This document shows positions 23,044-53,548 of a stretch of DNA of 64,000 bases, in pieces. The notes under the pieces were generated by a model. The model searched no databases, was not told the DNA's origin, and saw nothing but the letters and a program-made list of their open reading frames with translations. Each line of letters opens with the position of its first letter. The first letter of the stretch is position 1. Source of the stretch: Eledone cirrhosa (taxonomy: Eukaryota); NCBI GenBank assembly GCA_964016885.1, contig OZ024748.1, forward strand, positions 8,308,001 to 8,372,000. The letters run 5' to 3'. The translations under genes were made by a program, and so were the position numbers.

Positions 23044-23155
23044 TGAGGCTCTGGTAAATAACACATGAAATGCTATCGAACCTGGAACTTAATGATTGCG
23101 AAACGTACGATTTAACCATTTCGCGACTGCTGCGTTCATATATAACAGTTAGGTG

Positions 23156-23192
<37 letters not shown>

Positions 23193-23196
23193 TTTC

Positions 23197-23202
23197 TTTA
23201 TT
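23197..23202 (-). terminator. Polyadenylation-signal-like AATAAA just before the (ATT)n tail (present in every copy)
   Basis: Minus strand reads GGTTAATAAAGAAATC(ATT)n. Confidence 0.6.
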
Positions 23203-23452
23203 AACCACAAGGGTTTACATAAAGTAGACATTAAGGACAGTGCAGGACAATGCAGGACGGTACAAATGGGCATTTCTGCGTGTAAAAAAACAAAAACAGA
23301 GGATGTAACAAAAATAACAATGAAAATAACAATGAAAAATTCCCCAATAGGGGGGAGACTTCGGAGGGACATTTGTGGAGAAAGCCCAGTAAAAAGCCAC
23401 AATGACCCTGACCACCAAGGCAAGTGCCCTCTCCCAGTTTTCCACCTTTAGT

Positions 23453-26400
23453 TTACAGATATATACTCAGAGTCGGCCCATTCACTCGGGCCATTCTTGC
23501 TTCTCTCACCCATCTTTCAACAAAATGCTGGGAAGAGAGCACTTCCTTCTCTACTCTGATTTTCCTTTTCAAATGAAATTTGAAAAAGTCAATCAGAGCA
23601 TCACCGAAGAGGTAAGTGCTCGTCTTCAGCCCTTTCAAACGTGTCCACCATACTATCTCTTTCGCCATGGCCACCAGACAGATAAAAACTGCCTGCCCTT
23701 CCCGGCTAAAGGAGGAGGGCGGGGCAATCCTCACGATAGACTCAGATGATAGCTGGATCCGTCCTAAACGCGACAGCAGGTGTTCGACATAAACCCACAA
23801 GTCAGCAATTTTCGGACACTGGACGAGTGCGTGCAGGACGGTTTCGTCGCCCTGCGCGCATCTCGGACATGCCCGGCTGACGGCACCTCCATGCCTGTAG
23901 AGTTTATCCCGAACTGGCAAGGCTCCTCGGTAGCACTGCCAGGCCAGAGATTTCTGGAAGTTGTCCATAGGCCCTGGCCCGAAGGTTCTTCCGAAGAGAT
24001 TGGCTAGTTGATTTTCGTCGACGCCTAGAGTTTCCCCAAGTACGTCGTCGCTCTTCCCCTCCACTAATCCTCTATAGAACGCCGAGGTGGAGTTTCCACC
24101 GATCACATTGCCCGATTGGTCGAGGGCTGTGAGCGCCTGAAGACATTCCAGTCTCCAGGCGCTCCCTCTCGGTCTTCGCTTGACCCAGGACTGCAGCTCC
24201 GTCAAGGAAACGAGCTGGGGAAAAACGCGTCTAGCAAACGGCGACCACACCTGATCACCGTCGAGGAAGAGGTGGAGATGTCGTAGCCTGAGCGCGTGCC
24301 TGCGCATCATCAGCCACGGCATGCCCAGCCCTCCACGTAGCGGGTGTTGACAACAGATGGACCGCCTGACCATCGGAGCACGTCCCTTCCACAAAAAGCG
24401 AAAGAGCAAACGCTCCAGCGCAGTCAGGCGAGGCTTAGGACAAGGTACGACGGTTAGGCGGTAGCAGATGACAGACGCGATGTACGCGTTAGCCACCTCC
24501 GCTCGACCTTTCAGGGATAGCTTCCTCTCCGCCCATTTCTGGGTGAGAGAAGCCACCCTGCTCGTCACCTCGTCCCAGTTTTTGTCCGTCTGGAGGTCCG
24601 GACCGAACCAGACCCCTAGCAATTTAACCGGTCCGTCCGTCCAGCGCCCGACGACGCTGTTGGACGGCATGGACCTGCCTCTCCAGGTGCCGAGCTGCAG
24701 GCCCACTGACTTTTCCTGGTTGATCATTGCTCCTGTCACCGCTTCGTATTCTCTTAGTGTAGTGCCGATCGCCTCGATGTGTTTGGCGTTCGACACCACT
24801 ACGGTGACATCGTCCGCATATGCTGACACGGATCTTCCGCATCCTAGTTCGCGCGGGACTCCCCTCAACGTCTCCAGTTTGTGCAGTAATGGCTCGAGAG
24901 TCAATACGTACAAGAGGGACGAGAGGGGACATCCTTGGCGGACCGAGCGCATGATGTTGAACGGTTCCGACAGGTGACCGTTCACTCTCACCACAGAGCA
25001 GATGTCGCTGTGCATGGCAGCGATCCAGCCTCTGAAGACGGGCCCAAAGCCAGCCGCCCTCAGGACTGCCGCTAGGTAACGATGGTCGACCCTATCGAAA
25101 GCTTTCGACTGATCTAAATTGATCAAGGACCCACCCGTGCCAGGTTCCCTAGCTACCCTCTCTACGATGTATCGCATGAGGTGGAGGTTGTCGTGGATGG
25201 ATCTGTCGGGAATGGCGCATGTCTGCGCCTCTCCCACCAGACCACCAACGACAAGCGCCAACCTCTTTGCTAGCACCTTGGCCAAAATCTTAAACTCTGT
25301 GTTTAGCAGAGTTATGGGCCGGAAATTGTCTATGTTATCCCCCTTGTTCGGATCCTTTCTCAGCAGTGCCACCGCTCCTCGGCTCACAGAACTGGGAATT
25401 CTCCCGTTCTGTTGCCAGTTGCAGTAGACGTCCGCCAAGAGGCCTCCGAACAAGTCTGGCATCTGTACGTAAAGTTCATAGGGCAGACCATCCAAACCAG
25501 GCGATTTACCCCTTGTGCAGCCAGTCATTGCCTCCCTTACTTCAGCGGCTGTTATCGGCTTTTCGCAACACTTCGCCTCAGTGGCCGAGAGCCGCGGCAG
25601 TCCGTCGAGGTAGACACTAAAGTCCATCCCTCTACCCGGCCCCCCGCTGCCCCCGAACAGCTGAGCGAAGTGTCGCTGAAAAGCTTCACACATTTGCCCG
25701 GGATCGAGTAGCATGCGCCCGTCGTGGTCCACCAAAGACCGGATCGTGGCTTTGTTGCCACGACGCGCCTCCGCCACTCGGGCCCATTGAACGGCTTTCG
25801 TCCCCTCGTGTCTGAGAGCACGCACCCTAGCTCTGACAACGCAGCCTTCGTGCTTTGCATTGAAGAATTGGTCAAGGGCCAATTTCGCCGCAAGCACGTC
25901 GGTCGCAATGCCTTTGCTAAGCGCCTCGTCTAATTTTCTAACTAGTTCTCCCTCTGCTCTATTTTTCTCTATTGCTAAAGCCTTACTAAACCTAATCGAT
26001 TCTATTCTAATCGCTCTTTTCAGAGCAAACCACCACTTGTTGTTGACGATGGCCCCCGTCAACGCCCGCTTAACTAGTTCGCTAATCCGGTCTCTGTAGG
26101 CCTTGCGCGCTGGTAAGGACGCGTTTAGCTTCCAGTAGCCGGGTCCTCGTCTATGAAGCCTATCTAAGTCAAGCACACAGATCACGAATTTGTGGTCCGT
26201 GTAGCTGACTATCTTGAATTGTGGACAGCCTATGCTAGACCTATCTATTTCCCTACAAAATACTCTATCTAGATATGATCTGGATGACCCTATGCGGTTT
26301 GTCCAAGTCCACATTGGCACATTCGGGAAATCCAATCGGTACCTGTCAGACAGTTCAAAACGCCTGAGCAGGTTGGTGAGGCTCTTGCACCCTCCACCCC

Positions 26401-26872
26401 TATCCGCTAATCCCACACAGTCCCAGCGTGCATCTAAGATCCCGTTCCAGTCGCCCACTAACACTAAAGAGCGCGACGTTCCAAGAAAGGTCTCCAGACG
26501 CCGGAAGAAATCAGGCCGCCCTGCTCCTGTCGGGGCATAGACGGCCACTAGCCTGAAAGCTTGCCCGTCTCCGCTGGTCACGTCCAGCACCACCAGCTTA
26601 CCCTCTGGGTCCAGGAAGATGGCCCGTATGGCGAGATCCAAACCTCTCCGAAAAAGCACAGCAACTCCTCCACCCGATCCAGGACGGCTGGGAGATGCGT
26701 ACACATCGTAGCCGCCGAAGATCGGTGCGAAGGCCCGTGCTTCGGAGATTCTGGTCTCGCTGATGGCCACTACATCTATGTTTAGTGACCTGAGGTCGTT
26801 GAGCAGGTGACCCTGCTTCCATGACGACCCCAAGCCACGCGCATTTATGCTGCCTATTCTGAGTGAGGTCAT
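23453..26872 (-). CDS. LINE ORF2 (APE endonuclease + reverse transcriptase + C-terminal Cys/His zinc finger), 1139 aa, copy 1
   Basis: EN motifs GSINARG, ISET, VYAP, GDWN, SYLDR, TDH; RT motifs KSPGLDG, FRPITLLN, LDQSKAFDRVDH, RQGCPLS, YADD; C-terminal CPRC..ETVLHALVQC; GPGYWKLN linker typical of L1/Tx1. Confidence 0.96.
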   Translation of the reverse strand: MTSLRIGSINARGLGSSWKQGHLLNDLRSLNIDVVAISETRISEARAFAPIFGGYDVYASPSRPGSGGGVAVLFRRGLDLAIRAIFLDPEGKLVVLDVTSGDGQAFRLVAVYAPTGAGRPDFFRRLETFLGTSRSLVLVGDWNGILDARWDCVGLADRGGGCKSLTNLLRRFELSDRYRLDFPNVPMWTWTNRIGSSRSYLDRVFCREIDRSSIGCPQFKIVSYTDHKFVICVLDLDRLHRRGPGYWKLNASLPARKAYRDRISELVKRALTGAIVNNKWWFALKRAIRIESIRFSKALAIEKNRAEGELVRKLDEALSKGIATDVLAAKLALDQFFNAKHEGCVVRARVRALRHEGTKAVQWARVAEARRGNKATIRSLVDHDGRMLLDPGQMCEAFQRHFAQLFGGSGGPGRGMDFSVYLDGLPRLSATEAKCCEKPITAAEVREAMTGCTRGKSPGLDGLPYELYVQMPDLFGGLLADVYCNWQQNGRIPSSVSRGAVALLRKDPNKGDNIDNFRPITLLNTEFKILAKVLAKRLALVVGGLVGEAQTCAIPDRSIHDNLHLMRYIVERVAREPGTGGSLINLDQSKAFDRVDHRYLAAVLRAAGFGPVFRGWIAAMHSDICSVVRVNGHLSEPFNIMRSVRQGCPLSSLLYVLTLEPLLHKLETLRGVPRELGCGRSVSAYADDVTVVVSNAKHIEAIGTTLREYEAVTGAMINQEKSVGLQLGTWRGRSMPSNSVVGRWTDGPVKLLGVWFGPDLQTDKNWDEVTSRVASLTQKWAERKLSLKGRAEVANAYIASVICYRLTVVPCPKPRLTALERLLFRFLWKGRAPMVRRSICCQHPLRGGLGMPWLMMRRHALRLRHLHLFLDGDQVWSPFARRVFPQLVSLTELQSWVKRRPRGSAWRLECLQALTALDQSGNVIGGNSTSAFYRGLVEGKSDDVLGETLGVDENQLANLFGRTFGPGPMDNFQKSLAWQCYRGALPVRDKLYRHGGAVSRACPRCAQGDETVLHALVQCPKIADLWVYVEHLLSRLGRIQLSSESIVRIAPPSSFSREGQAVFICLVAMAKEIVWWTRLKGLKTSTYLFGDALIDFFKFHLKRKIRVEKEVLSSQHFVERWVREARMARVNGPTLSIYL

Positions 26873-26907
26873 GTTTAAAATAGAGTGGAAAAGATGGGAA
26901 AGACCAC

Positions 26908-29007
26908 TTACCGTATTTTTGGTAGAGGAGGGATGGTTTTTACATCCCTTTTCACTTGATCGTCTGGTGAAGGGACCGTTGAATCGTCCCTTCGGCTGGT
27001 CGTCGGCTCTTCTAAGAGAATGTCTGAATATACTCTTCGATTAATGGTTCCTCCTAGGTCCCTGAAATCACCAACTGCGTTGGGGAATTTCGTTTTAATG
27101 TTTGTGTATTGTTTCTGTGCTATTTTTAGCAGTCTTATGTTAGTTGGCGTTTTGATTGGTGCTGGTATTATGTAGTCCTGTTGTGAAATGTCTGTGTGTT
27201 CAATTATGTAAGTCATTAGTTTCTTGTTGTGTGTGTTTATTGCCGTGCATTTGTTTTTCTGGGGGTGGGGTGTGGTTCTGCTATTTTCTTGTCGTTGTTG
27301 CTGGGTGTGTGTGTTTTGTTGTTGTGTTTGCGATGTTGGTGCTTGTGGTGGTGGTGTTGAAGGTGTTGTTGGCGGTGGGGTTGTCGCCGGTGGTGATGGT
27401 GGTGCTGGTGTGGGTGGTGATGGTGTTGGTGGTGTTGCTGCTGTGGGTCTCTTTGCAGTAGACTTTACCCTTTTCTCATTTCTTTCCTCCCTTTTCAAAG
27501 GCGACGATGCGCTGCTTCTGCGTTTGTGCCTTCTTGAGACCTTTTGCCATCCCTCTCCCACCTCACACTCCATGTCTGATTCTGTAAGGTCGGGGAGGGG
27601 TACCAGCTCCACTCTTTCACTTGTTGTTGTTGGTGATGTTTGCACTGGAGTCTCTGTTGCAGCTGCATTTGGTATTGCTGTTGTTGTTGTTAATATTTCC
27701 ACTGCTGCTGCTGTCTTTGATTTCCGTGGAGTGGGTATGGGTGCCACGGACCTATCGTTCCTGGTTGCCGCTTGTCCTGTTGCTGGTAGCCGTGGAACCG
27801 GATTCGGGAGGAGGGGGGTTTTCTCCTTTCTCAGGGTCTTCTCGTTGCAGAAGGCCCTGAGGTGAGTCTTCGATCCACAGCGAAAGCATTTCGGGCGTTT
27901 GCCCTCAACACTTATGGGCAGTTGAGTGCCGTTATCGAAGTCTATCACATCCGGGATAGCTTCGATGCACTCCTGGTTGGTTTGTATTAGCATCTCAATG
28001 GAGGAGCCGACCCAATCTTCTCTTACTTTTTTCTGTACTTGCAGTACAGTTGTTTTGTCCTCGATTCCGACGAGGACAGACGCGGCCAGCCAAGAAGGGG
28101 TCATTCCGGGGGGGACGTGGGTCAGTTTGACCCTCACAATTTTTTGCCCGCAGTAGGAGGGCACCAACACCATTTCCTCGCTCCTTAGGGTCACTACTGA
28201 TTGGGCCTTTGCCTCCTGGGGTGTGGCAAAAAGTACGTCTACGGTGGCGTATTTTTTGCCTCGGGTGATGTGCGTTTTCCTCTGCCACACAGACCCCAAG
28301 GCTTTTTGTATTTGGGCCTCTGTGGCTCTTTCCACCCTACGGGATTTTGTACTTACTGTACGGTACGTGACCGTACAGTGCTCTTGGGTTTCGAAAAAAT
28401 TTTTCGCTGCCTTGCAGATTGCTCGGTGTCCGTTCTTTGTCACCATCTTCTTCGCTTCCTCTAATTCCTCATTTGTTATGAGGATTGTTTCCAGGTTTTT
28501 CGCAATACCTGCAAATGAGATTGGTTTTTCTCTGCTGTTGTTGTTGTCGTCAGAGCTGCTGGTACTTTTGTTGTTGCTGCAGGTACTACGACTACTGCCT
28601 CCGCCGCTGTTGCTGTGGTTGTTGTTGGTGTTGCTGCTGCTAATGGTGTTGTTGTTTATGCTGCTGGTGATGCTGTTGCGGCTGCTACTGTTGTTTTCAT
28701 TGTCACTGTTGCTGTTGTTATTACGGCTGCTACTGCTATTATTCCTGACGTCAGACGAATGAACTGGGTTTTCGTATTTCCCGCACACCTGTTTCGTCGC
28801 TGTCGTCGTCGTCGTGGAGAAACCTTGCACGCTTTGCACGAGACTTTTCTTTTCTTTCGTCGCTTGCGAAAGAGAAGGTAGGGAGAGAGACACATTTAAA
28901 GAAGGGAGGGAGAGAGACAATCTTCTCTCTCCTGTAGTGATGATTGAGGAAGAAGAAGACGGAATGAGTGGGAGTGACGTATGAAATTTTTTTTTTTTGG
29001 TAGCCAT
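26908..29007 (-). CDS. LINE ORF1 (gag-like nucleic-acid-binding protein), 699 aa from first ATG, copy 1
   Basis: CCHC knuckle CFRCGSKTHLRAFC (C-X2-C-X4-H-X4-C); N/S-rich N-terminus, Pro/Thr-rich C-terminal part, basic RRHKRR; first ATG (AACATGG) at 29007, whereas the ORF-track start at 29040 is a TTG. Confidence 0.9.
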   Translation of the reverse strand: MATKKKKFHTSLPLIPSSSSSIITTGERRLSLSLPSLNVSLSLPSLSQATKEKKSLVQSVQGFSTTTTTATKQVCGKYENPVHSSDVRNNSSSSRNNNSNSDNENNSSSRNSITSSINNNTISSSNTNNNHSNSGGGSSRSTCSNNKSTSSSDDNNNSREKPISFAGIAKNLETILITNEELEEAKKMVTKNGHRAICKAAKNFFETQEHCTVTYRTVSTKSRRVERATEAQIQKALGSVWQRKTHITRGKKYATVDVLFATPQEAKAQSVVTLRSEEMVLVPSYCGQKIVRVKLTHVPPGMTPSWLAASVLVGIEDKTTVLQVQKKVREDWVGSSIEMLIQTNQECIEAIPDVIDFDNGTQLPISVEGKRPKCFRCGSKTHLRAFCNEKTLRKEKTPLLPNPVPRLPATGQAATRNDRSVAPIPTPRKSKTAAAVEILTTTTAIPNAAATETPVQTSPTTTSERVELVPLPDLTESDMECEVGEGWQKVSRRHKRRSSASSPLKREERNEKRVKSTAKRPTAATPPTPSPPTPAPPSPPATTPPPTTPSTPPPQAPTSQTQQQNTHTQQQRQENSRTTPHPQKNKCTAINTHNKKLMTYIIEHTDISQQDYIIPAPIKTPTNIRLLKIAQKQYTNIKTKFPNAVGDFRDLGGTINRRVYSDILLEEPTTSRRDDSTVPSPDDQVKRDVKTIPPLPKIR

Positions 29008-29220
29008 GTTTTTTTGTTTAAAATGAAATTTTGGGTACAAAACCCCAATAACTGGCTATTTAACCCCGAAGGGCCAAATAACGGACAGAAAGACCCCTCT
29101 CACGAGGAGGAGGGTGTCTTTATCAACAATTTGGTTCAAGTTTTAAACAATTTACAATTGTTTTAACGGTTAAAAATTACTATACCTTACAGAGCCGAGC
29201 CTCCGTCAACCATGGCATTC
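29008..29220 (-). promoter_or_regulatory. LINE 5'UTR (213 nt; probable internal promoter / structured leader); same position in all six copies
   Basis: Lies between the element 5' end and the ORF1 ATG; multiple stem-loops including a cUUCGg-capped one; short uORF MVDGGSAL (29213-29187). Confidence 0.6.
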
Positions 29221-29252
<32 letters not shown>

Positions 29253-29512
29253 TTTCTTTATTAACCACAAGGGTTTACATAAAGTAGACATTAAGGACAG
29301 TGCAGGACAATGCAGGACGGTACAAATGGGCATTTCTGCGTGTAAAAAAACAAAAACAGAGGATGTAACAAAAATAACAATGAAAATAACAATGAAAAAT
29401 TCCCCAATAGGGGGGAGACTTCGGAGGGACATTTGTGGAGAAAGCCCAGTAAAAAGCCACAATGACCCTGACCACCAAGGCAAGTGCCCTCTCCCAGTTT
29501 TCCACCTTTAGT

Positions 29513-32500
29513 TTACAGATATATACTCAGAGTCGGCCCATTCACTCGGGCCATTCTTGCTTCTCTCACCCATCTTTCAACAAAATGCTGGGAAGAGAGC
29601 ACTTCCCTCTCTACTCTGATTTTCCTTTTCAAATGAAATTTGAAAAAGTCAATCAGAGCATCACCGAAGAGGTAAGTGCTCGTCTTCAGCCCTTTCAAAC
29701 GTGTCCACCATACTATCTCTTTCGCCATGGCCACCAGACAGATAAAAACTGCCTGCCCTTCCCGGCTAAAGGAGGAGGGCGGGGCAATCCTCACGATGGA
29801 CCCAGATGATAGCTGGATCCGTCCTAAACGCGACAGCAGGTGTTCGACATAAACCCACAAGTCAGCAATTTTCGGACACTGGACGAGTGCGTGCAGGACG
29901 GTTTCGTCGCCCTGCGCGCATCTCGGACATGCCCGGCTGACGGCACCTCCATGCCTGTAGAGTTTATCCCGAACTGGCAAGGCTCCTCGGTAGCACTGCC
30001 AGGCCAGAGATTTCTGGAAGTTGTCCATAGGCCCTGGCCCGAAAGTTCTTCCGAAGAGATTGGCTAGTTGATTTTCGTCGACGCCTAGAGTTTCCCCAAG
30101 TACGTCGTCGCTCTTCCCCTCCACTAATCCTCTATAGAACGCCGAGGTGGAGTTTCCACCGATCACATTGCCCGATTGGTCGAGGGCTGTGAGCGCCTGA
30201 AGACATTCCAGTCTCCAGGCGCTCCCTCTCGGTCTTCGCTTGACCCAGGACTGCAGCTCCGTCAAGGAAACGAGCTGGGGAAAAACGCGTCTAGCAAACG
30301 GCGACCACACCTGATCACCGTCGAGGAAGAGGTGGAGATGTCGTAGCCTGAGCGCGTGCCTGCGCATCATCAGCCACGGCATGCCCAGCCCTCCACGTAG
30401 CGGGTGTTGACAACAGATGGACCGCCTGACCATCGGAGCACGTCCCTTCCACAAAAAGCGAAAGAGCAAACGCTCCAGCGCAGTCAGGCGAGGCTTAGGA
30501 CAAGGTACGACGGTTAGGCGGTAGCAGATGACAGACGCGATGTACGCGTTAGCCACCTCCGCTCGACCTTTCAGGGATAGCTTCCTCTCCGCCCATTTCT
30601 GGGTGAGAGAAGCCACCCTGCTCGTCACCTCGTCCCAGTTTTTGTCCGTCTGGAGGTCCGGACCGAACCAGACCCCTAGCAATTTAACCGGTCCGTCCGT
30701 CCAGCGCCCGACGACGCTGTTGGACGGCATGGACCTGCCTCTCCAGGTGCCGAGCTGCAGGCCCACTGACTTTTCCTGGTTGATCATTGCTCCTGTCACC
30801 GCTTCGTATTCTCTTAGTGTAGTGCCGATCGCCTCGATGTGTTTGGCGTTCGACACCACTACGGTGACATCGTCCGCATATGCTGACACGGATCTTCCGC
30901 ATCCTAGTTCGCGCGGGACTCCCCTCAACGTCTCCAGTTTGTGCAGTAATGGCTCGAGAGTCAATACGTACAAGAGGGACGAGAGGGGACATCCTTGGCG
31001 GACCGAGCGCATGATGTTGAACGGTTCCGACAGGTGACCGTTCACTCTCACCACAGAGCAGATGTCGCTGTGCATGGCAGCGATCCAGCCTCTGAAGACG
31101 GGCCCAAAGCCAGCCGCCCTCAGGACTGCCGCTAGGTAACGATGGTCGACCCTATCGAAAGCTTTCGACTGATCTAAATTGATCAAGGACCCACCCGTGC
31201 CAGGTTCCCTAGCTACCCTCTCTACGATGTATCGCATGAGGTGGAGGTTGTCGTGGATGGATCTGTCGGGAATGGCGCATGTCTGCGCCTCTCCCACCAG
31301 ACCACCAACGACAAGCGCCAACCTCTTTGCTAGCACCTTGGCCAAAATCTTAAACTCTGTGTTTAGCAGAGTTATGGGCCGGAAATTGTCTATGTTATCC
31401 CCCTTGTTCGGATCCTTTCTCAGCAGTGCCACCGCTCCTCGGCTCACAGAACTGGGAATTCTCCCGTTCTGTTGCCAGTTGCAGTAGACGTCCGCCAAGA
31501 GGCCTCCGAACAAGTCTGGCATCTGTACGTAAAGTTCATAGGGCAGACCATCCAAACCAGGCGATTTACCCCTTGTGCAGCCAGTCATTGCCTCCCGTAC
31601 TTCAGCGGCTGTTATCGGCTTTTCGCAACACCTCGCCTCAGTGGCCGAGAGCCGCGGCAGCCCGTCGAGGTAGACACTAAAGTCCATCCCTCTACCCGGC
31701 CCCCCGCTGCCCCCGAACAGCTGAGCGAAGTGTCGCTGAAAAGCTTCACACATTTGCCCGGGATCGAGTAGCATGCGCCCGTCGTGGTCCACCAAAGACC
31801 GGATCGTGGCTTTGTTGCCACGACGCGCCTCCGCCACTCGGGCCCATTGAACGGCTTTCGTCCCCTCGTGTCTGAGAGCACGCACCCTAGCTCTGACAAC
31901 GCAGCCTTCGTGCTTTGCATTGAAGAATTGGTCAAGGGCCAATTTCGCCGCAAGCACGTCGGTCGCAATGCCTTTGCTAAGCGCCTCGTCTAATTTTCTA
32001 ACTAGTTCTCCCTCTGCTCTATTTTTCTCTATTGCTAAAGCCTTACTAAACCTAATCGATTCTATTCTAATCGCTCTTTTCAGAGCAAACCACCACTTGT
32101 TGTTGACGATGGCCCCCGTCAACGCCCGCTTAACTAGTTCGCTAATCCGGTCTCTGTAGGCCTTGCGCGCTGGTAAGGACGCGTTTAGCTTCCAGTAGCC
32201 GGGTCCTCGTCTATGAAGCCTATCTAAGTCAAGCACACAGATCACGAATTTGTGGTCCGTGTAGCTGACTATCTTGAATTGTGGACAGCCTATGCTAGAC
32301 CTATCTATTTCCCTACAAAATACTCTATCTAGATATGATCTGGATGACCCTATGCGGTTTGTCCAAGTCCACATTGGCACATTCGGGAAATCCAATCGGT
32401 ACCTGTCAGACAGTTCAAAACGCCTGAGCAGGTTGGTGAGGCTCTTGCACCCTCCACCCCTATCCGCTAATCCCACACAGTCCCAGCGTGCATCTAAGAT

Positions 32501-32932
32501 CCCGTTCCAGTCGCCCACTAACACTAAAGAGCGCGACGTTCCAAGAAAGGTCTCCAGACGCCGGAAGAAATCAGGCCGCCCTGCTCCTGTCGGGGCATAG
32601 ACGGCCACTAGCCTGAAAGCTTGCCCGTCTCCGCTGGTCACGTCCAGCACCACCAGCTTACCCTCTGGGTCCAGGAAGATGGCCCGTATGGCGAGATCCA
32701 AACCTCTCCGAAAAAGTACAGCAACTCCTCCACCGGATCCAGGACGGCTGGGAGATGCGTACACATCGTAGCCGCCGAAGATCGGTGCGAAGGCCCGTGC
32801 TTCGGAGATTCTGGTCTCGCTGATGGCCACTACATCTATGTTTAGTGACCTGAGGTCGTTGAGCAGGTGACCCTGCTTCCATGACGACCCCAAGCCACGC
32901 GCATTTATGCTGCCTATTCTGAGTGAGGTCAT
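29513..32932 (-). CDS. LINE ORF2 (EN-RT-ZnF), copy 2
   Basis: Intact 1139 aa; same motifs as copy 1. Confidence 0.96.
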   Translation of the reverse strand: MTSLRIGSINARGLGSSWKQGHLLNDLRSLNIDVVAISETRISEARAFAPIFGGYDVYASPSRPGSGGGVAVLFRRGLDLAIRAIFLDPEGKLVVLDVTSGDGQAFRLVAVYAPTGAGRPDFFRRLETFLGTSRSLVLVGDWNGILDARWDCVGLADRGGGCKSLTNLLRRFELSDRYRLDFPNVPMWTWTNRIGSSRSYLDRVFCREIDRSSIGCPQFKIVSYTDHKFVICVLDLDRLHRRGPGYWKLNASLPARKAYRDRISELVKRALTGAIVNNKWWFALKRAIRIESIRFSKALAIEKNRAEGELVRKLDEALSKGIATDVLAAKLALDQFFNAKHEGCVVRARVRALRHEGTKAVQWARVAEARRGNKATIRSLVDHDGRMLLDPGQMCEAFQRHFAQLFGGSGGPGRGMDFSVYLDGLPRLSATEARCCEKPITAAEVREAMTGCTRGKSPGLDGLPYELYVQMPDLFGGLLADVYCNWQQNGRIPSSVSRGAVALLRKDPNKGDNIDNFRPITLLNTEFKILAKVLAKRLALVVGGLVGEAQTCAIPDRSIHDNLHLMRYIVERVAREPGTGGSLINLDQSKAFDRVDHRYLAAVLRAAGFGPVFRGWIAAMHSDICSVVRVNGHLSEPFNIMRSVRQGCPLSSLLYVLTLEPLLHKLETLRGVPRELGCGRSVSAYADDVTVVVSNAKHIEAIGTTLREYEAVTGAMINQEKSVGLQLGTWRGRSMPSNSVVGRWTDGPVKLLGVWFGPDLQTDKNWDEVTSRVASLTQKWAERKLSLKGRAEVANAYIASVICYRLTVVPCPKPRLTALERLLFRFLWKGRAPMVRRSICCQHPLRGGLGMPWLMMRRHALRLRHLHLFLDGDQVWSPFARRVFPQLVSLTELQSWVKRRPRGSAWRLECLQALTALDQSGNVIGGNSTSAFYRGLVEGKSDDVLGETLGVDENQLANLFGRTFGPGPMDNFQKSLAWQCYRGALPVRDKLYRHGGAVSRACPRCAQGDETVLHALVQCPKIADLWVYVEHLLSRLGRIQLSSGSIVRIAPPSSFSREGQAVFICLVAMAKEIVWWTRLKGLKTSTYLFGDALIDFFKFHLKRKIRVEREVLSSQHFVERWVREARMARVNGPTLSIYL

Positions 32933-32967
32933 GTTTAAAATAGAGTGGAAAAGATGGGAAAGACCAC

Positions 32968-35067
32968 TTACCGTACTTTTGGTAGAGGAGGGATGGTTTT
33001 TACATCCCTTTTCACTTGATCGTCTGGTGAAGGGACCGTTGAATCGTCCCTTCGGCTGGTCGTCGGCTCTTCTAAGAGAATGTCTGAGTATACTCTTCGA
33101 TTGATGGTTCCTCCTAGGTCCCTGAAATCACCAACTGCGTTGGGGAATTTCGTTTTAATATTTGTGTATTGTTTCTGTGCTATTTTTAGCAGTCTTATGT
33201 TAGTTGGCGTTTTGATTGGTGCTGGTATTATGTAGTCCTGTTGTGAAATGTCTGTGTGTTCAATTATGTAAGTCATTAGTTTCTTGTTGTGTGTATTTAT
33301 TGCCGTGCATTTGTTTTTCTGGGGGTGGGGTGTGGTTCTACTATTTTCTTGTCGTTGTTGCTGGGTGTGTGTGTTTTGTTGTTGTGTTTGCGATGTTGGT
33401 GCTTGTGGTGGTGGTGTTGAAGGTGTTGTTGGCGGTGGGGTTGTCGCCGGTGGTGATGGTGGCGCTAGTGTGGGTGGTGATGGTGTTGGTGTTGTTGCTG
33501 CTGTGGGTCTCTTTGCAGTAGACTTTACCCTTTTCTCATTTCTTTCCTCCCTTTTCAAAGGCGACGATGCGCTGCTTCTGCGTTTGTGCCTTCTTGAGAC
33601 CTTTTGCCATCCCTCTCCCACCTCACACTCCATGTCTGATTCTGTAAGGTCGGGGAGGGGTACCAGCTCCACTCTTTCACTTGTTGTTGTTGGTGATGTT
33701 TGCACTGGAGTCTCTGTTGCAGCTGCATTTGGTATTGCTGTTGTTGTTGTTAATATTTCCACTGCTGCTGCTGTCTTTGATTTCCGTGGAGTGGGTATGG
33801 GTGCCACGGACCTATCGTTCCTGGTTGCCGCTTGTCCTGTTGCTGGTAGCCGTGGAACCGGATTCGGGAGGAGGGGGGTTTTCTCCTTTCTCAGGGTCTT
33901 CTCGTTGCAGAAGGCCCTGAGGTGAGTCTTCGATCCACAGCGAAAGCATTTCGGGCGTTTGCCCTCAACACTTATGGGCAGTTGAGTGCCGTTATCGAAG
34001 TCTATCACATCCGGGATAGCTTCGATGCACTCCTGGTTGGTTTGTATTAGCATCTCAATGGAGGAGCCGACCCAATCTTCTCTTACTTTTTTCTGTACTT
34101 GCAGTACAGTTGTTTTGTCCTCGATTCCGACGAGGACAGACGCGGCCAGCCAAGAAGGGGTCATTCCGGGGGGGACGTGGGTCAGTTTGACCCTCACAAT
34201 TTTTTGCCCGCAGTAGGAGGGCACCAACACCATTTCCTCGCTCCTTAGGGTCACTACTGATTGGGCCTTTGCCTCCTGGGGTGTGGCAAAAAGTACGTCT
34301 ACGGTGGCGTATTTTTTGCCTCGGGTGATGTGCGTTTTCCTCTGCCACACAGACCCCAAGGCTTTTTGTATTTGGGCCTCTGTGGCTCTTTCCACCCTAC
34401 GGGATTTTGTACTTACTGTACGGTACGTGACCGTACAGTGCTCTTGGGTTTCGAAAAAATTTTTCGCTGCCTTGCAGATTGCTCGGTGTCCGTTCTTTGT
34501 CACCATCTTCTTCGCTTCCTCTAATTCCTCATTTGTTATGAGGATTGTTTCCAGGTTTTTCGCAATACCTGCAAATGAGATTGGTTTTTCTCTGCTGTTG
34601 TTGTTGTCGTCAGAGCTGCTGGTACTTTTGTTGTTGCTGCAGGTACTACGACTACTGCCTCCGCCGCTGTTGCTGTGGTTGTTGTTGGTGTTGCTGCTGC
34701 TAATGGTGTTGTTGTTTATGCTGCTGGTGATGCTGTTGCGGCTGCTACTGTTGTTTTCATTGTCACTGTTGCTGTTGTTATTACGGCTGCTACTGCTATT
34801 ATTCCTGACGTCAGACGAATGAACTGGGTTTTCGTATTTCCCGCACACCTGTTTCGTCGCTGTCGTCGTCGTCGTGGAGAAACCTTGCACGCTTTGCACG
34901 AGACTTTTCTTTTCTTTCGTCGCTTGCGAAAGAGAAGGTAGGGAGAGAGACACATTTAAAGAAGGGAGGGAGAGAGACAATCTTCTCTCTCCTGTAGTGA
35001 TGATTGAGGAAGAAGAAGACGGAATGAGTGGGAGTGACGTATGAAATTTTTTTTTTTTGGTAGCCAT
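32968..35067 (-). CDS. LINE ORF1, copy 2
   Basis: Intact; CCHC knuckle; several private substitutions near the C-terminus (ends PKVR). Confidence 0.9.
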   Translation of the reverse strand: MATKKKKFHTSLPLIPSSSSSIITTGERRLSLSLPSLNVSLSLPSLSQATKEKKSLVQSVQGFSTTTTTATKQVCGKYENPVHSSDVRNNSSSSRNNNSNSDNENNSSSRNSITSSINNNTISSSNTNNNHSNSGGGSSRSTCSNNKSTSSSDDNNNSREKPISFAGIAKNLETILITNEELEEAKKMVTKNGHRAICKAAKNFFETQEHCTVTYRTVSTKSRRVERATEAQIQKALGSVWQRKTHITRGKKYATVDVLFATPQEAKAQSVVTLRSEEMVLVPSYCGQKIVRVKLTHVPPGMTPSWLAASVLVGIEDKTTVLQVQKKVREDWVGSSIEMLIQTNQECIEAIPDVIDFDNGTQLPISVEGKRPKCFRCGSKTHLRAFCNEKTLRKEKTPLLPNPVPRLPATGQAATRNDRSVAPIPTPRKSKTAAAVEILTTTTAIPNAAATETPVQTSPTTTSERVELVPLPDLTESDMECEVGEGWQKVSRRHKRRSSASSPLKREERNEKRVKSTAKRPTAATTPTPSPPTLAPPSPPATTPPPTTPSTPPPQAPTSQTQQQNTHTQQQRQENSRTTPHPQKNKCTAINTHNKKLMTYIIEHTDISQQDYIIPAPIKTPTNIRLLKIAQKQYTNIKTKFPNAVGDFRDLGGTINRRVYSDILLEEPTTSRRDDSTVPSPDDQVKRDVKTIPPLPKVR

Positions 35068-35280
35068 GTTTTTTTGTTTAAAATGAAATTTTGGGTACAA
35101 AACCCCAATAACTGGCTATTTAACCCCGAAGGGCCAAATAACGGACAGAAAGACCCCTCTCACGAGGAGGAGGGTGTCTTTATCAACAATTTGGTTCAAG
35201 TTTTAAACAATTTACAATTGTTTTAACGGTTAAAAATTACTATACCTTACAGAGCCGAGCCTCCGTCAACCATGGCATTC

Positions 35281-35330
<50 letters not shown>

Positions 35331-35591
35331 TTTCTTTATTAACCACAAGGGTTTACATAAAGTAGACATTAAGGACAGTGCAGGACAATGCAGGACGGTA
35401 CAAATGGGCATTTCTGCGTGTAAAAAAAACAAAAATAGAGGATGTAACAAAAATAACAATGAAAATAACAATGAAAAATTCCCCAATAGGGGGGAGACTT
35501 CGGAGGGACATTTGTGGAGAAAGCCCAGTAAAAAGCCACAATGACCCTGACCACCAAGGCAAGTGCCCTCTCCCAGTTTTCCACCTTTAGT

Positions 35592-38500
35592 TTACAGATA
35601 TATACTCAGAGTCGGCCCATTCACTCGGGCCATTCTTGCTTCTCTCACCCATCTTTCAACAAAATGCTGGGAAGAGAGCACTTCCTTCTCTACTCTGATT
35701 TTCCTTTTCAAATGAAATTTGAAAAAGTCAATCAGAGCATCACCGAAGAGGTAAGTGCTCGTCTTCAGCCCTTTCAAACGTGTCCACCATACTATCTCTT
35801 TCGCCATGGCCACCAGACAGATAAAAACTGCCTGCCCTTCCCGGCTAAAGGAGGAGGGCGGGGCAATCCTCACGATAGACTCAGATGATAGCTGGATCCG
35901 TCCTAAACGCGACAGCAGGTGTTCGACATAAACCCACAAGTCAGCAATTTTCGGACACTGGACGAGTGCGTGCAGGACGGTTTCGTCGCCCTGCGCGCAT
36001 CTCGGACATGCCCGGCTGACGGCACCTCCATGCCTGTAGAGTTTATCCCGAACTGGCAAGGCTCCTCGGTAGCACTGCCAGGCCAGAGATTTCTGGAAGT
36101 TGTCCATAGGCCCTGGCCCGAAGGTTCTTCCGAAGAGATTGGCTAGTTGATTTTCGTCGACGCCTAGAGTTTCCCCAAGTACGTCGTCGCTCTTCCCCTC
36201 CACTAATCCTCTATAGAACGCCGAGGTGGAGTTTCCACCGATCACATTGCCCGATTGGTCGAGGGCTGTGAGCGCCTGAAGACATTCCAGTCTCCAGGCG
36301 CTCCCTCTCGGTCTTCGCTTGACCCAGGACTGCAGCTCCGTCAAGGAAACGAGCTGGGGAAAAACGCGTCTAGCAAACGGCGACCACACCTGATCACCGT
36401 CGAGGAAGAGGTGGAGATGTCGTAGCCTGAGCGCGTGCCTGCGCATCATCAGCCACGGCATGCCCAGCCCTCCACGTAGCGGGTGTTGACAACAGATGGA
36501 CCGCCTGACCATCGGAGCACGTCCCTTCCACAAAAAGCGAAAGAGCAAACGCTCCAGCGCAGTCAGGCGAGGCTTAGGACAAGGTACGACGGTTAGGCGG
36601 TAGCAGATGACAGACGCGATGTACGCGTTAGCCACCTCCGCTCGACCTTTCAGGGATAGCTTCCTCTCCGCCCATTTCTGGGTGAGAGAAGCCACCCTGC
36701 TCGTCACCTCGTCCCAGTTTTTGTCCGTCTGGAGGTCCGGACCGAACCAGACCCCTAGCAATTTAACCGGTCCGTCCGTCCAGCGCCCGACGACGCTGTT
36801 GGACGGCATGGACCTGCCTCTCCAGGTGCCGAGCTGCAGGCCCACTGACTTTTCCTGGTTGATCATTGCTCCTGTCACCGCTTCGTATTCTCTTAGTGTA
36901 GTGCCGATCGCCTCGATGTGTTTGGCGTTCGACACCACTACGGTGACATCGTCCGCATATGCTGACACGGATCTTCCGCATCCTAGTTCGCGCGGGACTC
37001 CCCTCAACGTCTCCAGTTTGTGCAGTAATGGCTCGAGAGTCAATACGTACAAGAGGGACGAGAGGGGACATCCTTGGCGGACCGAGCGCATGATGTTGAA
37101 CGGTTCCGACAGGTGACCGTTCACTCTCACCACAGAGCAGATGTCGCTGTGCATGGCAGCGATCCAGCCTCTGAAGACGGGCCCAAAGCCAGCCGCCCTC
37201 AGGACTGCCGCTAGGTAACGATGGTCGACCCTATCGAAAGCTTTCGACTGATCTAAATTGATCAAGGACCCACCCGTGCCAGGTTCCCTAGCTACCCTCT
37301 CTACGATGTATCGCATGAGGTGGAGGTTGTCGTGGATGGATCTGTCGGGAATGGCGCATGTCTGCGCCTCTCCCACCAGACCACCAACGACAAGCGCCAA
37401 CCTCTTTGCTAGCACCTTGGCCAAAATCTTAAACTCTGTGTTTAGCAGAGTTATGGGCCGGAAATTGTCTATGTTATCCCCCTTGTTCGGATCCTTTCTC
37501 AGCAGTGCCACCGCTCCTCGGCTCACAGAACTGGGAATTCTCCCGTTCTGTTGCCAGTTGCAGTAGACGTCCGCCAAGAGGCCTCCGAACAAGTCTGGCA
37601 TCTGTACGTAAAGTTCATAGGGCAGACCATCCAAACCAGGCGATTTACCCCTTGTGCAGCCAGTCATTGCCTCCCTTACTTCAGCGGCTGTTATCGGCTT
37701 TTCGCAACACTTCGCCTCAGTGGCCGAGAGCCGCGGCAGTCCGTCGAGGTAGACACTAAAGTCCATCCCTCTACCCGGCCCCCCGCTGCCCCCGAACAGC
37801 TGAGCGAAGTGTCGCTGAAAAGCTTCACACATTTGCCCGGGATCGAGTAGCATGCGCCCGTCGTGGTCCACCAAAGACCGGATCGTGGCTTTGTTGCCAC
37901 GACGCGCCTCCGCCACTCGGGCCCATTGAACGGCTTTCGTCCCCTCGTGTCTGAGAGCACGCACCCTAGCTCTGACAACGCAGCCTTCGTGCTTTGCATT
38001 GAAGAATTGGTCAAGGGCCAATTTCGCCGCAAGCACGTCGGTCGCAATGCCTTTGCTAAGCGCCTCGTCTAATTTTCTAACTAGTTCTCCCTCTGCTCTA
38101 TTTTTCTCTATTGCTAAAGCCTTACTAAACCTAATCGATTCTATTCTAATCGCTCTTTTCAGAGCAAACCACCACTTGTTGTTGACGATGGCCCCCGTCA
38201 ACGCCCGCTTAACTAGTTCGCTAATCCGGTCTCTGTAGGCCTTGCGCGCTGGTAAGGACGCGTTTAGCTTCCAGTAGCCGGGTCCTCGTCTATGAAGCCT
38301 ATCTAAGTCAAGCACACAGATCACGAATTTGTGGTCCGTGTAGCTGACTATCTTGAATTGTGGACAGCCTATGCTAGACCTATCTATTTCCCTACAAAAT
38401 ACTCTATCTAGATATGATCTGGATGACCCTATGCGGTTTGTCCAAGTCCACATTGGCACATTCGGGAAATCCAATCGGTACCTGTCAGACAGTTCAAAAC

Positions 38501-39011
38501 GCCTGAGCAGGTTGGTGAGGCTCTTGCACCCTCCACCCCTATCCGCTAATCCCACACAGTCCCAGCGTGCATCTAAGATCCCGTTCCAGTCGCCCACTAA
38601 CACTAAAGAGCGCGACGTTCCAAGAAAGGTCTCCAGACGCCGGAAGAAATCAGGCCGCCCTGCTCCTGTCGGGGCATAGGCGGCCACTAGCCTGAAAGCT
38701 TGCCCGTCTCCGCTGGTCACGTCCAGCACCACCAGCTTACCCTCTGGGTCCAGGAAGATGGCCCGTATGGCGAGATCCAAACCTCTCCGAAAAAGCACAG
38801 CAACTCCTCCACCCGATCCAGGACGGCTGGGAGATGCGTACACATCGTAGCCGCCGAAGATCGGTGCGAAGGCCCGTGCTTCGGAGATTCTGGTCTCGCT
38901 GATGGCCACTACATCTATGTTTAGTGACCTGAGGTCGTTGAGCAGGTGACCCTGCTTCCATGACGACCCCAAGCCACGCGCATTTATGCTGCCTATTCTG
39001 AGTGAGGTCAT
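35592..39011 (-). CDS. LINE ORF2 (EN-RT-ZnF), copy 3
   Basis: Intact 1139 aa; private VYAP->AYAP change. Confidence 0.96.
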   Translation of the reverse strand: MTSLRIGSINARGLGSSWKQGHLLNDLRSLNIDVVAISETRISEARAFAPIFGGYDVYASPSRPGSGGGVAVLFRRGLDLAIRAIFLDPEGKLVVLDVTSGDGQAFRLVAAYAPTGAGRPDFFRRLETFLGTSRSLVLVGDWNGILDARWDCVGLADRGGGCKSLTNLLRRFELSDRYRLDFPNVPMWTWTNRIGSSRSYLDRVFCREIDRSSIGCPQFKIVSYTDHKFVICVLDLDRLHRRGPGYWKLNASLPARKAYRDRISELVKRALTGAIVNNKWWFALKRAIRIESIRFSKALAIEKNRAEGELVRKLDEALSKGIATDVLAAKLALDQFFNAKHEGCVVRARVRALRHEGTKAVQWARVAEARRGNKATIRSLVDHDGRMLLDPGQMCEAFQRHFAQLFGGSGGPGRGMDFSVYLDGLPRLSATEAKCCEKPITAAEVREAMTGCTRGKSPGLDGLPYELYVQMPDLFGGLLADVYCNWQQNGRIPSSVSRGAVALLRKDPNKGDNIDNFRPITLLNTEFKILAKVLAKRLALVVGGLVGEAQTCAIPDRSIHDNLHLMRYIVERVAREPGTGGSLINLDQSKAFDRVDHRYLAAVLRAAGFGPVFRGWIAAMHSDICSVVRVNGHLSEPFNIMRSVRQGCPLSSLLYVLTLEPLLHKLETLRGVPRELGCGRSVSAYADDVTVVVSNAKHIEAIGTTLREYEAVTGAMINQEKSVGLQLGTWRGRSMPSNSVVGRWTDGPVKLLGVWFGPDLQTDKNWDEVTSRVASLTQKWAERKLSLKGRAEVANAYIASVICYRLTVVPCPKPRLTALERLLFRFLWKGRAPMVRRSICCQHPLRGGLGMPWLMMRRHALRLRHLHLFLDGDQVWSPFARRVFPQLVSLTELQSWVKRRPRGSAWRLECLQALTALDQSGNVIGGNSTSAFYRGLVEGKSDDVLGETLGVDENQLANLFGRTFGPGPMDNFQKSLAWQCYRGALPVRDKLYRHGGAVSRACPRCAQGDETVLHALVQCPKIADLWVYVEHLLSRLGRIQLSSESIVRIAPPSSFSREGQAVFICLVAMAKEIVWWTRLKGLKTSTYLFGDALIDFFKFHLKRKIRVEKEVLSSQHFVERWVREARMARVNGPTLSIYL

Positions 39012-39046
39012 GTTTAAAATAGAGTGGAAAAGATGGGAAAGACCAC

Positions 39047-41146
39047 TTACCGTATTTTTGGTAGAGGAGGGATGGTTTTTACATCCCTTTTCACTTGATC
39101 GTCTGGTGAAGGGACCGTTGAATCGTCCCTTCGGCTGGTCGTCGGCTCTTCTAAGAGAATGTCTGAATATACTCTTCGATTAATGGTTCCTCCTAGGTCC
39201 CTGAAATCACCAACTGCGTTGGGGAATTTCGTTTTAATGTTTGTGTATTGTTTCTGTGCTATTTTTAGCAGTCTTATGTTAGTTGGCGTTTTGATTGGTG
39301 CTGGTATTATGTAGTCCTGTTGTGAAATGTCTGTGTGTTCAATTATGTAAGTCATTAGTTTCTTGTTGTGTGTGTTTATTGCCGTGCATTTGTTTTTCTG
39401 GGGGTGGGGTGTGGTTCTGCTATTTTCTTGTCGTTGTTGCTGGGTGTGTGTGTTTTGTTGTTGTGTTTGCGATGTTGGTGCTTGTGGTGGTGGTGTTGAA
39501 GGTGTTGTTGGCGGTGGGGTTGTCGCCGGTGGTGATGGTGGTGCTGGTGTGGGTGGTGATGGTGTTGGTGGTGTTGCTGCTGTGGGTCTCTTTGCAGTAG
39601 ACTTTACCCTTTTCTCATTTCTTTCCTCCCTTTTCAAAGGCGACGATGCGCTGCTTCTGCGTTTGTGCCTTCTTGAGACCTTTTGCCATCCCTCTCCCAC
39701 CTCACACTCCATGTCTGATTCTGTAAGGTCGGGGAGGGGTACCAGCTCCACTCTTTCACTTGTTGTTGTTGGTGATGTTTGCACTGGAGTCTCTGTTGCA
39801 GCTGCATTTGGTATTGCTGTTGTTGTTGTTAATATTTCCACTGCTGCTGCTGTCTTTGATTTCCGTGGAGTGGGTATGGGTGCCACGGACCTATCGTTCC
39901 TGGTTGCCGCTTGTCCTGTTGCTGGTAGCCGTGGAACCGGATTCGGGAGGAGGGGGGTTTTCTCCTTTCTCAGGGTCTTCTCGTTGCAGAAGGCCCTGAG
40001 GTGAGTCTTCGATCCACAGCGAAAGCATTTCGGGCGTTTGCCCTCAACACTTATGGGCAGTTGAGTGCCGTTATCGAAGTCTATCACATCCGGGATAGCT
40101 TCGATGCACTCCTGGTTGGTTTGGATTAGCATCTCAATGGAGGAGCCGACCCAATCTTCTCTTACTTTTTTCTGTACTTGCAGTACAGTTGTTTTGTCCT
40201 CGATTCCGACGAGGACAGACGCGGCCAGCCAAGAAGGGGTCATTCCGGGGGGGACGTGGGTCAGTTTGACCCTCACAATTTTTTGCCCGCAGTAGGAGGG
40301 CACCAACACCATTTCCTCGCTCCTTAGGGTCACTACTGATTGGGCCTTTGCCTCCTGGGGTGTGGCAAAAAGTACGTCTACGGTGGCGTATTTTTTGCCT
40401 CGGGTGATGTGCGTTTTCCTCTGCCACACAGACCCCAAGGCTTTTTGTATTTGGGCCTCTGTGGCTCTTTCCACCCTACGGGATTTTGTACTTACTGTAC
40501 GGTACGTGACCGTACAGTGCTCTTGGGTTTCGAAAAAATTTTTCGCTGCCTTGCAGATTGCTCGGTGTCCGTTCTTTGTCACCATCTTCTTCGCTTCCTC
40601 TAATTCCTCATTTGTTATGAGGATTGTTTCCAGGTTTTTCGCAATACCTGCAAATGAGATTGGTTTTTCTCTGCTGTTGTTGTTGTCGTCAGAGCTGCTG
40701 GTACTTTTGTTGTTGCTGCAGGTACTACGACTACTGCCTCCGCCGCTGTTGCTGTGGTTGTTGTTGGTGTTGCTGCTGCTAATGCTGTTGTTGTTTATGC
40801 TGCTGGTGATGCTGTTGCGGCTGCTACTGTTGTTTTCATTGTCACTGTTGCTGTTGTTATTACGGCTGCTACTGCTATTATTCCTGACGTCAGACGAATG
40901 AATTGGGTTTTCGTATTTCCCGCACACCTGTTTCGTCGCTGTCGTCGTCGTCGTGGAGAAACCTTGCACGCTTTGCACGAGACTTTTCTTTTCTTTCGTC
41001 GCTTGCGAAAGAGAAGGTAGGGAGAGAGACACATTTAAAGAAGGGAGGGAGAGAGACAATCTTCTCTCTCCTGTAGTGATGATTGAGGAAGAAGAAGACG
41101 GAATGAGTGGGAGTGACGTATGAAATTTTTTTTTTTTGGTAGCCAT
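39047..41146 (-). CDS. LINE ORF1, copy 3
   Basis: Intact; CCHC knuckle. Confidence 0.9.
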   Translation of the reverse strand: MATKKKKFHTSLPLIPSSSSSIITTGERRLSLSLPSLNVSLSLPSLSQATKEKKSLVQSVQGFSTTTTTATKQVCGKYENPIHSSDVRNNSSSSRNNNSNSDNENNSSSRNSITSSINNNSISSSNTNNNHSNSGGGSSRSTCSNNKSTSSSDDNNNSREKPISFAGIAKNLETILITNEELEEAKKMVTKNGHRAICKAAKNFFETQEHCTVTYRTVSTKSRRVERATEAQIQKALGSVWQRKTHITRGKKYATVDVLFATPQEAKAQSVVTLRSEEMVLVPSYCGQKIVRVKLTHVPPGMTPSWLAASVLVGIEDKTTVLQVQKKVREDWVGSSIEMLIQTNQECIEAIPDVIDFDNGTQLPISVEGKRPKCFRCGSKTHLRAFCNEKTLRKEKTPLLPNPVPRLPATGQAATRNDRSVAPIPTPRKSKTAAAVEILTTTTAIPNAAATETPVQTSPTTTSERVELVPLPDLTESDMECEVGEGWQKVSRRHKRRSSASSPLKREERNEKRVKSTAKRPTAATPPTPSPPTPAPPSPPATTPPPTTPSTPPPQAPTSQTQQQNTHTQQQRQENSRTTPHPQKNKCTAINTHNKKLMTYIIEHTDISQQDYIIPAPIKTPTNIRLLKIAQKQYTNIKTKFPNAVGDFRDLGGTINRRVYSDILLEEPTTSRRDDSTVPSPDDQVKRDVKTIPPLPKIR

Positions 41147-41359
41147 GTTGTTTTGTTTAAAATGAAATTTTGGGTACAAAACCCCAATAACTGGCTATTT
41201 AACCCCGAAGGGCCAAATAACGGACAGAAAGACCCCTCTCACGAGGAGGAGGGTGTCTTTATCAACAATTTGGTTCAAGTTTTAAACAATTTACAATTGT
41301 TTTAACGGTTAAAAATTACTATACCTTACAGAGCCGAGCCTCCGTCAACCATGGCATTC

Positions 41360-41397
<38 letters not shown>

Positions 41398-45077: not shown

Positions 45078-45112
45078 GTTTAAAATAGAGTGGAAAAGAT
45101 GGGAAAGACCAC

Positions 45113-47425: not shown

Positions 47426-47463
<38 letters not shown>

Positions 47464-53510: not shown

Positions 53511-53548
<38 letters not shown>

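Follow-up and report, generated by a model that had tools for sequence, protein, structure and literature searches.

Head-to-tail arrays of an (ATT)n-specific LINE in Eledone cirrhosa and their probable growth by insertion ahead of resident copies

The subject of this study is a family of long interspersed nuclear elements (LINEs) in the genome of Eledone cirrhosa, which forms a tandem array within a stretch of 64,000 nucleotides (assembly GCA_964016885.1, contig OZ024748.1, positions 8,308,001 to 8,372,000 of the forward strand; hereafter the window). The array consists of six minus-strand copies arranged head to tail between 23191 and 59576, each 6,030-6,031 bp long, which we number c1 to c6 from the 3'-most to the 5'-most. 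All six retain two intact open reading frames (ORFs), of 699 amino acids (aa) for ORF1 and 1139 aa for ORF2, and pairs of copies differ at 7-25 alignment columns. The features of the array are as follows.

23158..23190: host (AAT)11 tract bordering the array on its 3' side
23191..29220, minus strand: LINE copy c1, the 3'-most, 6,030 bp
26908..29007, minus strand: ORF1 of c1 (699 aa; zinc knuckle CX2CX4HX4C, aa 374)
23453..26872, minus strand: ORF2 of c1, 1139 aa, with APE endonuclease, reverse transcriptase (RT) and C-terminal zf-RVT (from Pfam, PDB and catalytic residues)
29221..29250: spacer c1/c2, (AAT)10
29251..35280, minus strand: copy c2
35281..35328: spacer c2/c3, (AAT)16
35329..41359, minus strand: copy c3
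41360..41395: spacer c3/c4, (AAT)12
41396..47425, minus strand: copy c4
47426..47479: spacer c4/c5, 54 bp, (AAT)12 GATGATGAG (AAT)3
47480..53510, minus strand: copy c5
53511..53546: spacer c5/c6, pure (AAT)12
53547..59576, minus strand: copy c6, the 5'-most
59577..59633: host target tract at the head of the array, (AAT)12 GATGATGAG (AAT)4

At their 5' side all six copies meet the repeat at an identical base (...CCATGGCATTC|AAT), including the outermost, which runs into the host tract at 59577-59633, while at the 3' side (AAT)n directly adjoins every copy and poly(A) is absent. These points had been made in an initial annotation of the window, together with a reconstruction of the empty site that fits the outer tract and the left flank of the array, GTTAGGTGAT(AAT)11, without fixing n. 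The spacers form a series from c1 to c6 of 10, 16 and 12 AAT units, then the interrupted spacer, then 12 units. The 54 bp of the interrupted spacer (47426-47479) exactly duplicate the host flank at 59577-59630, a match that the initial annotation did not mention. An assembly artefact was considered and ruled out, because the copies differ in structured, shared ways, the flanks are unique, and an independent sequencing run (X2) contains the 5' region of the element at high depth and the host flank, with 0 differences.

Above the cut-off, ORF2 matches the Pfam families PF03372 (Exo_endo_phos), PF00078 (RVT_1) and PF13966 (zf-RVT, aa 974-1026), and has no Pfam match to RNase H, nor a restriction-like endonuclease at its C-terminus. 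The APE catalytic residues N10, E39, Y112, D141, N143 and D202 and the SYTDH motif are all present, and a C-terminal Cys/His motif, CX2CX8HX4C, lies at aa 1002. Among PDB structures human L1 ORF2p comes closest (E 2.7e-52, aa 5-854), whereas R2 matches over the RT portion only (E 1e-21); no full CR1, RTE or jockey ORF2 is among the PDB matches, so the comparison is one of L1 with R2 only. A PDB search with the endonuclease (EN) alone gave loop-graft constructs similar scores and does not tell L1 from Tx1L. ORF1 carries a CCHC zinc knuckle, CFRCGSKTHLRAFC, at aa 374 and has no significant Pfam family; a gag-like CCHC knuckle in ORF1 is a feature of the Tx1 clade. ESM Atlas matches fall in RT, EN and zf-RVT clusters without family names, and a short stretch (5% of the query) is 64% identical to part of an Octopus sinensis protein. 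Given the APE residues, the zf-RVT domain, L1 ORF2p as the nearest structure and the CCHC knuckle of ORF1, we place the element, on sequence grounds, in the L1 group (L1/Tx1) among retrotransposons that lack long terminal repeats (non-LTR retrotransposons), and its architecture and target specificity make membership of the Tx1 clade likely. It is a young family. Dong, of the R4 clade, has a single ORF with a C-terminal restriction-like endonuclease; membership of Dong/R4 was rejected on the two ORFs and the N-terminal APE domain.

Targeting of (ATT)n/(AAT)n in one orientation, which the initial annotation had proposed from the window, holds genome-wide. The genome was searched with the exact 21-mer of the element's 5' end and with a 26-mer pattern from its 3' end. 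The 5' end occurs 1,687 times, and at least four AAT units follow in 1,627 cases (96.4%), a share above the >20% of flanks with one repeat type that serves as a criterion for target-specific LINEs (PMC4494074). The next base is other than A at three 5' ends, all of which still lie on ATT tracts with a differing last base, and reversed-pattern controls gave 0 occurrences. Exact heads of a sister family, described below, lie on (AAT)4 in 2,098 of 2,308 cases. The 3' 26-mer occurs 7,591 times, and 473 direct junctions of tail, tract and head were counted across the genome. Of the 40 best matches, 30 loci were fetched: each has (ATT)n directly upstream, and in 14 the 3' end of another copy stands above the tract. 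We also followed contig C1 in genome order for a sample of 42 3' ends, after dropping four edge-cut repeat rows: 36 have at least two ATT units downstream, and 20 belong to full-length copies (11 from the present family, 9 from the sister family; two were reference copies), all of them with ATT upstream. As to phase, the 5' end always reads ATT|G and the 3' end GAAATC|ATT or a close variant. Two truncated copies with readable ends have ordinary target duplications of ~11 and ~16 bp. We regard it as essentially settled at the genomic level that the element is confined almost only to (ATT)n tracts in one orientation, and its endonuclease likely nicks the AAT strand.

The spacers within arrays are mostly duplicated target. 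Short interrupted spacers were compared in seven arrays (the window, A1, A7, A9, B1, B2 and L051/52, under our working labels), and the spacers are read as mainly duplicated target because 18 of 18 copy host DNA upstream of the array, on its 5' or head side, and not the 3' flank. The match covers the full 24-59 bp in 17 of them and 41 of 50 bp in one, and at most 9 bases of the same spacers match the 3' flank. Their left ends vary; the right end always coincides with the first base of the resident, downstream copy. The arrays were not a random choice, A1-A5 coming from 100%-identity hits and the rest being taken from lists of coordinates; B1 and B2 had been picked for their interrupted spacers before their flanks were seen. 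Longer duplicates also occur, namely 243 bp of host DNA exactly duplicated in B4 and an 885-bp duplicate in A6. Two other long spacers match less, over 39 bp in A7, where there is an insert resembling a short interspersed nuclear element (SINE), and over 21 bp in the first spacer of A6.

The initial annotation had explained the arrays by an (ATT)n tail that the element itself produces and into which the next copy inserts. The poly(A)-free 3' ends of the six window copies would suit this, as would the pure ATT runs of 41 full-length copies, which are longer below the element (median 15 units) than above it (median 8), and one B2 junction with 9 non-target bases, (ATT)2AAT. However, the interrupted spacers copy the 5' host flank instead, and 4 of the 41 full-length copies have only 0-1 ATT units below the element, so that no long tail is obligatory; with no fewer than 26,354 starts of host (AAT)8 tracts in the genome, a self-made target is also unnecessary. 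We therefore consider this explanation extremely unlikely: of the earlier interpretation the targeting and the independent insertions stand, whereas the recreation of the target by the element's own tail is mostly wrong. Upstream and downstream tract lengths are negatively correlated (rho -0.31, p 0.049, n=41), and the pattern of tract lengths fits the splitting of an existing tract, while leaving scope for some tail addition; a small contribution of own tails to the spacers is possible.

What the initial annotation overlooked, and what points to the mechanism, is that neighbouring copies are chimeras which share their 5' parts. In an alignment of 100 full-length copies, 68 from array regions and 32 from other loci, we compared 43 adjacent pairs, four of which have fewer than 5 differences. 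Among the remaining pairs, the mean rank of the downstream neighbour is 0.16 in the first kilobase versus 0.49 in the last, and in 17 of the 19 arrays the 5' rank lies below the 3' rank (Wilcoxon test with a single value for each array, p=1.3e-4). Over all 43 pairs, the 3' half of the upstream copy is nearest to a copy outside the array in 32, inside it in 6 and tied in 5; for its 5' part the corresponding numbers are 7, 21 and 15. Exceptional identical prefixes were found in 20 of 37 pairs versus suffixes in 2 of 28, although these pairs are not independent. Rare shared variants, with array A12 excluded, number 53 in positions 1-2000 and 11 in 2001-6030, where unlinked pairs lead one to expect 3.8 and 4.5. 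Shared variants in ORF2 are synonymous in 34 cases and nonsynonymous in 17 (56 intact copies). An upstream copy, in short, joins a 3' part from lineages at other loci to the 5' part of its downstream resident, and the DNA from its 3' junction to the resident's head is duplicated.

A12 supplies the direction, because its upstream copy carries an old resident's 5' end and a younger 3' half: the 5' 1.2 kb shows 3 differences to the old resident and at least 87 to other copies, and the 3' half is younger (35 vs 117 differences to the nearest others). The best natural record of successive insertions is array B1 (G000:C1:441.086-441.143 Mb, L184-L191), which holds nine copies and a 2.1-kb 5' fragment. 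A 51-bp interrupted target is duplicated at most of its junctions, and its blocks have switch points from under 290 to over 5,100. The outermost fragment consists of resident bases 1-1409, then another haplotype to ~2116, then the 51-bp target duplicate. This fragment ends inside the element, and a donor's ATT tail cannot have guided that junction.

Such arrays could in principle expand with no reverse transcription after the first insertion, through unequal exchange between sisters or homologs or through ectopic recombination. The tandem expansion of R1 and hobo has been attributed to unequal exchange (PMC5932611), and the near-identity of 4 of the 43 adjacent pairs, like the exact identity of A5_1 and A5_3, agrees with it. 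Yet exchange predicts symmetric sharing, of 3' sequence with the upstream neighbour and of 5' sequence with the downstream one, and only the latter is seen; moreover, the 3' halves of 32 of the 43 upstream copies are nearest to other loci, and the new segment of the B1 fragment ends within the element. Unequal exchange is contradicted as the main route, a role in which we hold it very unlikely, and may account for a minority of units (A5_1 and A5_3, the identical B4_2 and B4_3, and part of A1).

The same 5' sharing can be followed through the window. Copy c1 lies 1 substitution from copies on contig C2 and 6-18 from its own neighbours, which bears out the repeated independent insertion put forward in the initial annotation, and it is probably the first insertion of the array. 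Copy c2 has no substitution relative to c1 in element positions 1-1788 and 18 beyond. Positions 3500-6030 of c3 are identical to copies on contigs C1 and C2, and its 5' end is not common with c2. Up to position 2679 c4 equals c3, and up to 3708 c6 equals c4. A variant at position 457 is present in c3, c4 and c6 only and absent in the 94 other aligned copies, including c5. Because c5 does not have this variant and the spacer above it is pure, c6 and c5 would most simply represent one read-through (dimer) complementary DNA (cDNA) that was finished on c4, with c5 as its likely 3' unit, and the pure c5/c6 spacer was likely carried in from a donor array. The pattern of c6 and c5 is repeated in B4.

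A different account would derive the arrays from ordinary double insertion in which the second nick always falls at the edge of the tract, so that the tract is duplicated with every new full-length copy, and would leave the 5' sharing to later gene conversion between neighbours. Tandems separated by target duplications are described for R1 (PMC5932611) and SINEU-3 (PMC4494074), and some of our pairs share almost no 5' sequence. Conversion should not, however, be confined to the 5' side and start at base 1, with suffix sharing at background (2 of 28, against 20 of 37 for prefixes), a fixed nick does not produce duplications of 243-885 bp, and the negative correlation of tract lengths at isolated sites is unlike whole-tract duplication. 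We judge this account unlikely.

To judge from the sequences compared here, we put the probability at about 70% that arrays grow by insertion at ATT ahead of a resident copy, with the cDNA completed by pairing with the resident's 5' region. The observed target, polarity, head-side duplication and 5'-only sharing would be joined as follows. By analogy with L1-type biology, a nick in the bottom (AAT) strand and target-primed reverse transcription would take place in the tract ahead of the resident, and pairing of AUU with AAT at the 3' end of the RNA might help priming. The cDNA, often unfinished, would then anneal to or jump onto the resident copy, so that the duplication would run from the first nick through the spacer and into the resident, up to the switch point. 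Each event would yield a full-length chimera and one more target tract, and read-through RNAs from arrays may sometimes add two units at once (window c6 and c5; B4). Insertion at empty tracts would give short duplications, as in the two readable truncated cases (~11-16 bp). The same chimeras and duplications would arise if the RT switched not to resident DNA but to a nascent RNA transcribed from the host DNA upstream and on through the resident, and the dimer cases do imply read-through; nevertheless, this would require upstream host transcription at many loci, including 243-885 bp of microsatellite-rich DNA, and we find it most improbable.

Several observations weigh against growth by insertion ahead of, and completion on, the resident. 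The choice of arrays was non-random (100%-identity hits, and interrupted spacers for B1 and B2), and the longer downstream tracts (median 15 vs 8) leave room for tail addition. Unequal exchange could also yield the 4 of 43 adjacent pairs with fewer than 5 differences and the identity of A5_1 with A5_3. Two of the 19 arrays (A5 and B4) have no 5' bias, and several pairs (A2_3/4, A5, A6_2/3) differ already at position 7-26, which limits the homology to the tract and a few bases at most. Copy c5 of the window misfits the addition of single units and requires the dimer step. Finally, upstream of the 22 truncated or rearranged copies among the sampled 3' ends there is a clear ATT tract in 8, a single ATT in 4, a CTT tract in 2 and other sequence in 8.

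Other elements use the same tracts. The sister family has an ORF2 ~95% identical to that of the present family, with a different 5' untranslated region (UTR) and ORF1 (49% aa identity); an example lies on the reverse strand of locus L044 (about 693-6603), and mixed arrays hold both families together. More distant is a third relative (L054; EN 66% aa), which likewise begins on ATT. A single-ORF element of 1141 aa with an RT, which we take to be Dong/R4-like, is found at L143:3149-6574 (+) and L148:4502-7716; it has a CCHC motif, a PD..D-like C-terminus and no APE match, and ends in (AAT)n. It occupies the same ATT tracts on the opposite strand, its 3'-end motifs standing next to ATT tracts 27 times in the fetched loci, and two unrelated endonucleases, those of this LINE and of the Dong-like element, seem to act on a common target. 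A SINE-like repeat ending ...GAAAC(C/A)ATTATT (window 20320-20560 and 21120-21730; L134-L137) supplies ATT tracts that the LINE uses, and also lies inside array A7 beside the duplicated target; at window 21307-21585 there are 4.7 tandem repeats of its 59-bp 3' end. This repeat may be mobilised by, or share its target with, the LINE's ORF2. Related interrupted ATT/GTT tracts occur at the independent arrays A4 (L123-L124), B1 (L184-L191) and B4 (L195-L205 region) and at a truncated copy (L068), and a T-run with the same downstream repeat terminates A4, B1 and B4, which suggests an insertion hotspot inside another repeat family. In 13 cases an ATT tract is followed by a recurring sequence that begins ACAGTTGCATTTATC and looks non-coding (L040, L059, L107 and L130-L131, the last being A6); it probably represents the terminus of a further repeat in the ATT niche. 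Elsewhere in the window, host minisatellites lie within 5689-11947 and 61047-62074 (48 bp x 9, 20 bp x 25, 41 bp x 5.5, 65 bp x 37 and 31 bp x 33).

More broadly, we think it reasonably likely that resident copies act as landing pads, homology to them replacing the second-strand nick and rescuing truncated cDNAs, and that retrotransposition alone would in this way let arrays grow and reshuffle 5' with 3' halves, within a niche shared with the opposite-strand Dong-like element. This would provide a route from a dispersed LINE to a tandem array without unequal exchange. Resident-assisted completion may also explain the unusually high share of full-length copies (20 of the 42 sampled 3' ends) and would be a source of recombination among copies. 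The nuclease that makes the second-strand break in LINE insertion is described as unknown (PMC4859970); hundreds of natural junctions bearing markers (interrupted tracts and single-nucleotide polymorphism haplotypes) record the first nick and the switch point, and make the question of how LINE cDNAs are joined at their 5' ends testable at scale within one genome. An APE endonuclease with ~96% microsatellite fidelity would, in addition, be a candidate for targeted-insertion work. We found neither an ATT-targeting L1/Tx1 (APE) element nor resident-completed LINE arrays in the open literature, a scope that leaves Repbase, subscription journals and the supplements of PMC4494074 outside, and an ATT-targeting Tx1 element may already have been catalogued.

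Dong has the same trinucleotide microsatellite as its target, and differs from this LINE in having a restriction-like rather than an APE endonuclease, as an R4-clade element. Its targeting of TAA repeats is noted in PMC3812793, and recently active L1-Tx1 and Dong-R4 families have been counted in Octopus vulgaris, in an account whose portion used here gives no target analysis (PMC13282606). APE-type LINEs that strictly prefer one microsatellite are found within the Tx1 clade, namely Kibi on (TC)n, Koshi on (TTC)n and crocodilian Tx1 on (TTCC)n/(TTTC)n (PMC4494074, PMC3812793). The present system differs from these in its (ATT)n target, its ~4,000 exact 5' heads across two sister families with swapped 5'UTR and ORF1, and its long arrays with resident-derived 5' parts, which the passages of those papers relied on here do not describe. 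Head-to-tail copies with duplicated target between them, produced by repeated insertion, are shared with the Drosophila R1 array, with its 33-nt ribosomal DNA duplications, with jockey dimers (both PMC5932611) and with tandem SINEU-3 around a target duplication (PMC4494074). In the R1 and jockey literature, as far as drawn on here, most non-LTR dimers are 5'-truncated and expansion proceeds by unequal exchange, whereas the arrays described here are mostly full-length and their growth looks insertion-driven and 5'-biased.

Human LINE-1 ORF2p (PDB 9k6g, 8uw3) shares the layout of EN, RT and C-terminal Cys domain and is the closest solved structure. L1 is promiscuous (TTTT/AA), ends in poly(A) and makes target duplications of 4-20 bp (PMC4859970), whereas this LINE is (ATT)n-specific and without poly(A). 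For tandem duplications of 1-10 kb linked to L1, an origin as target duplications of large size has been put forward (bioRxiv 10.1101/2024.12.14.628481). What these L1 events and the arrays would have in common is that homology or repair settles the 5' junction of the cDNA, with a large duplication. Gilbert and colleagues in 2005 and Symer and colleagues in 2002 reportedly described chimeric L1 copies formed by pairing of cDNA with an endogenous L1, with duplication or deletion of the target. Such chimeras are said to be rare accidents of cultured cells; in Eledone cirrhosa, by contrast, the process seems to be a regular germline pathway, since new cDNAs are brought next to homologous residents by the target specificity.

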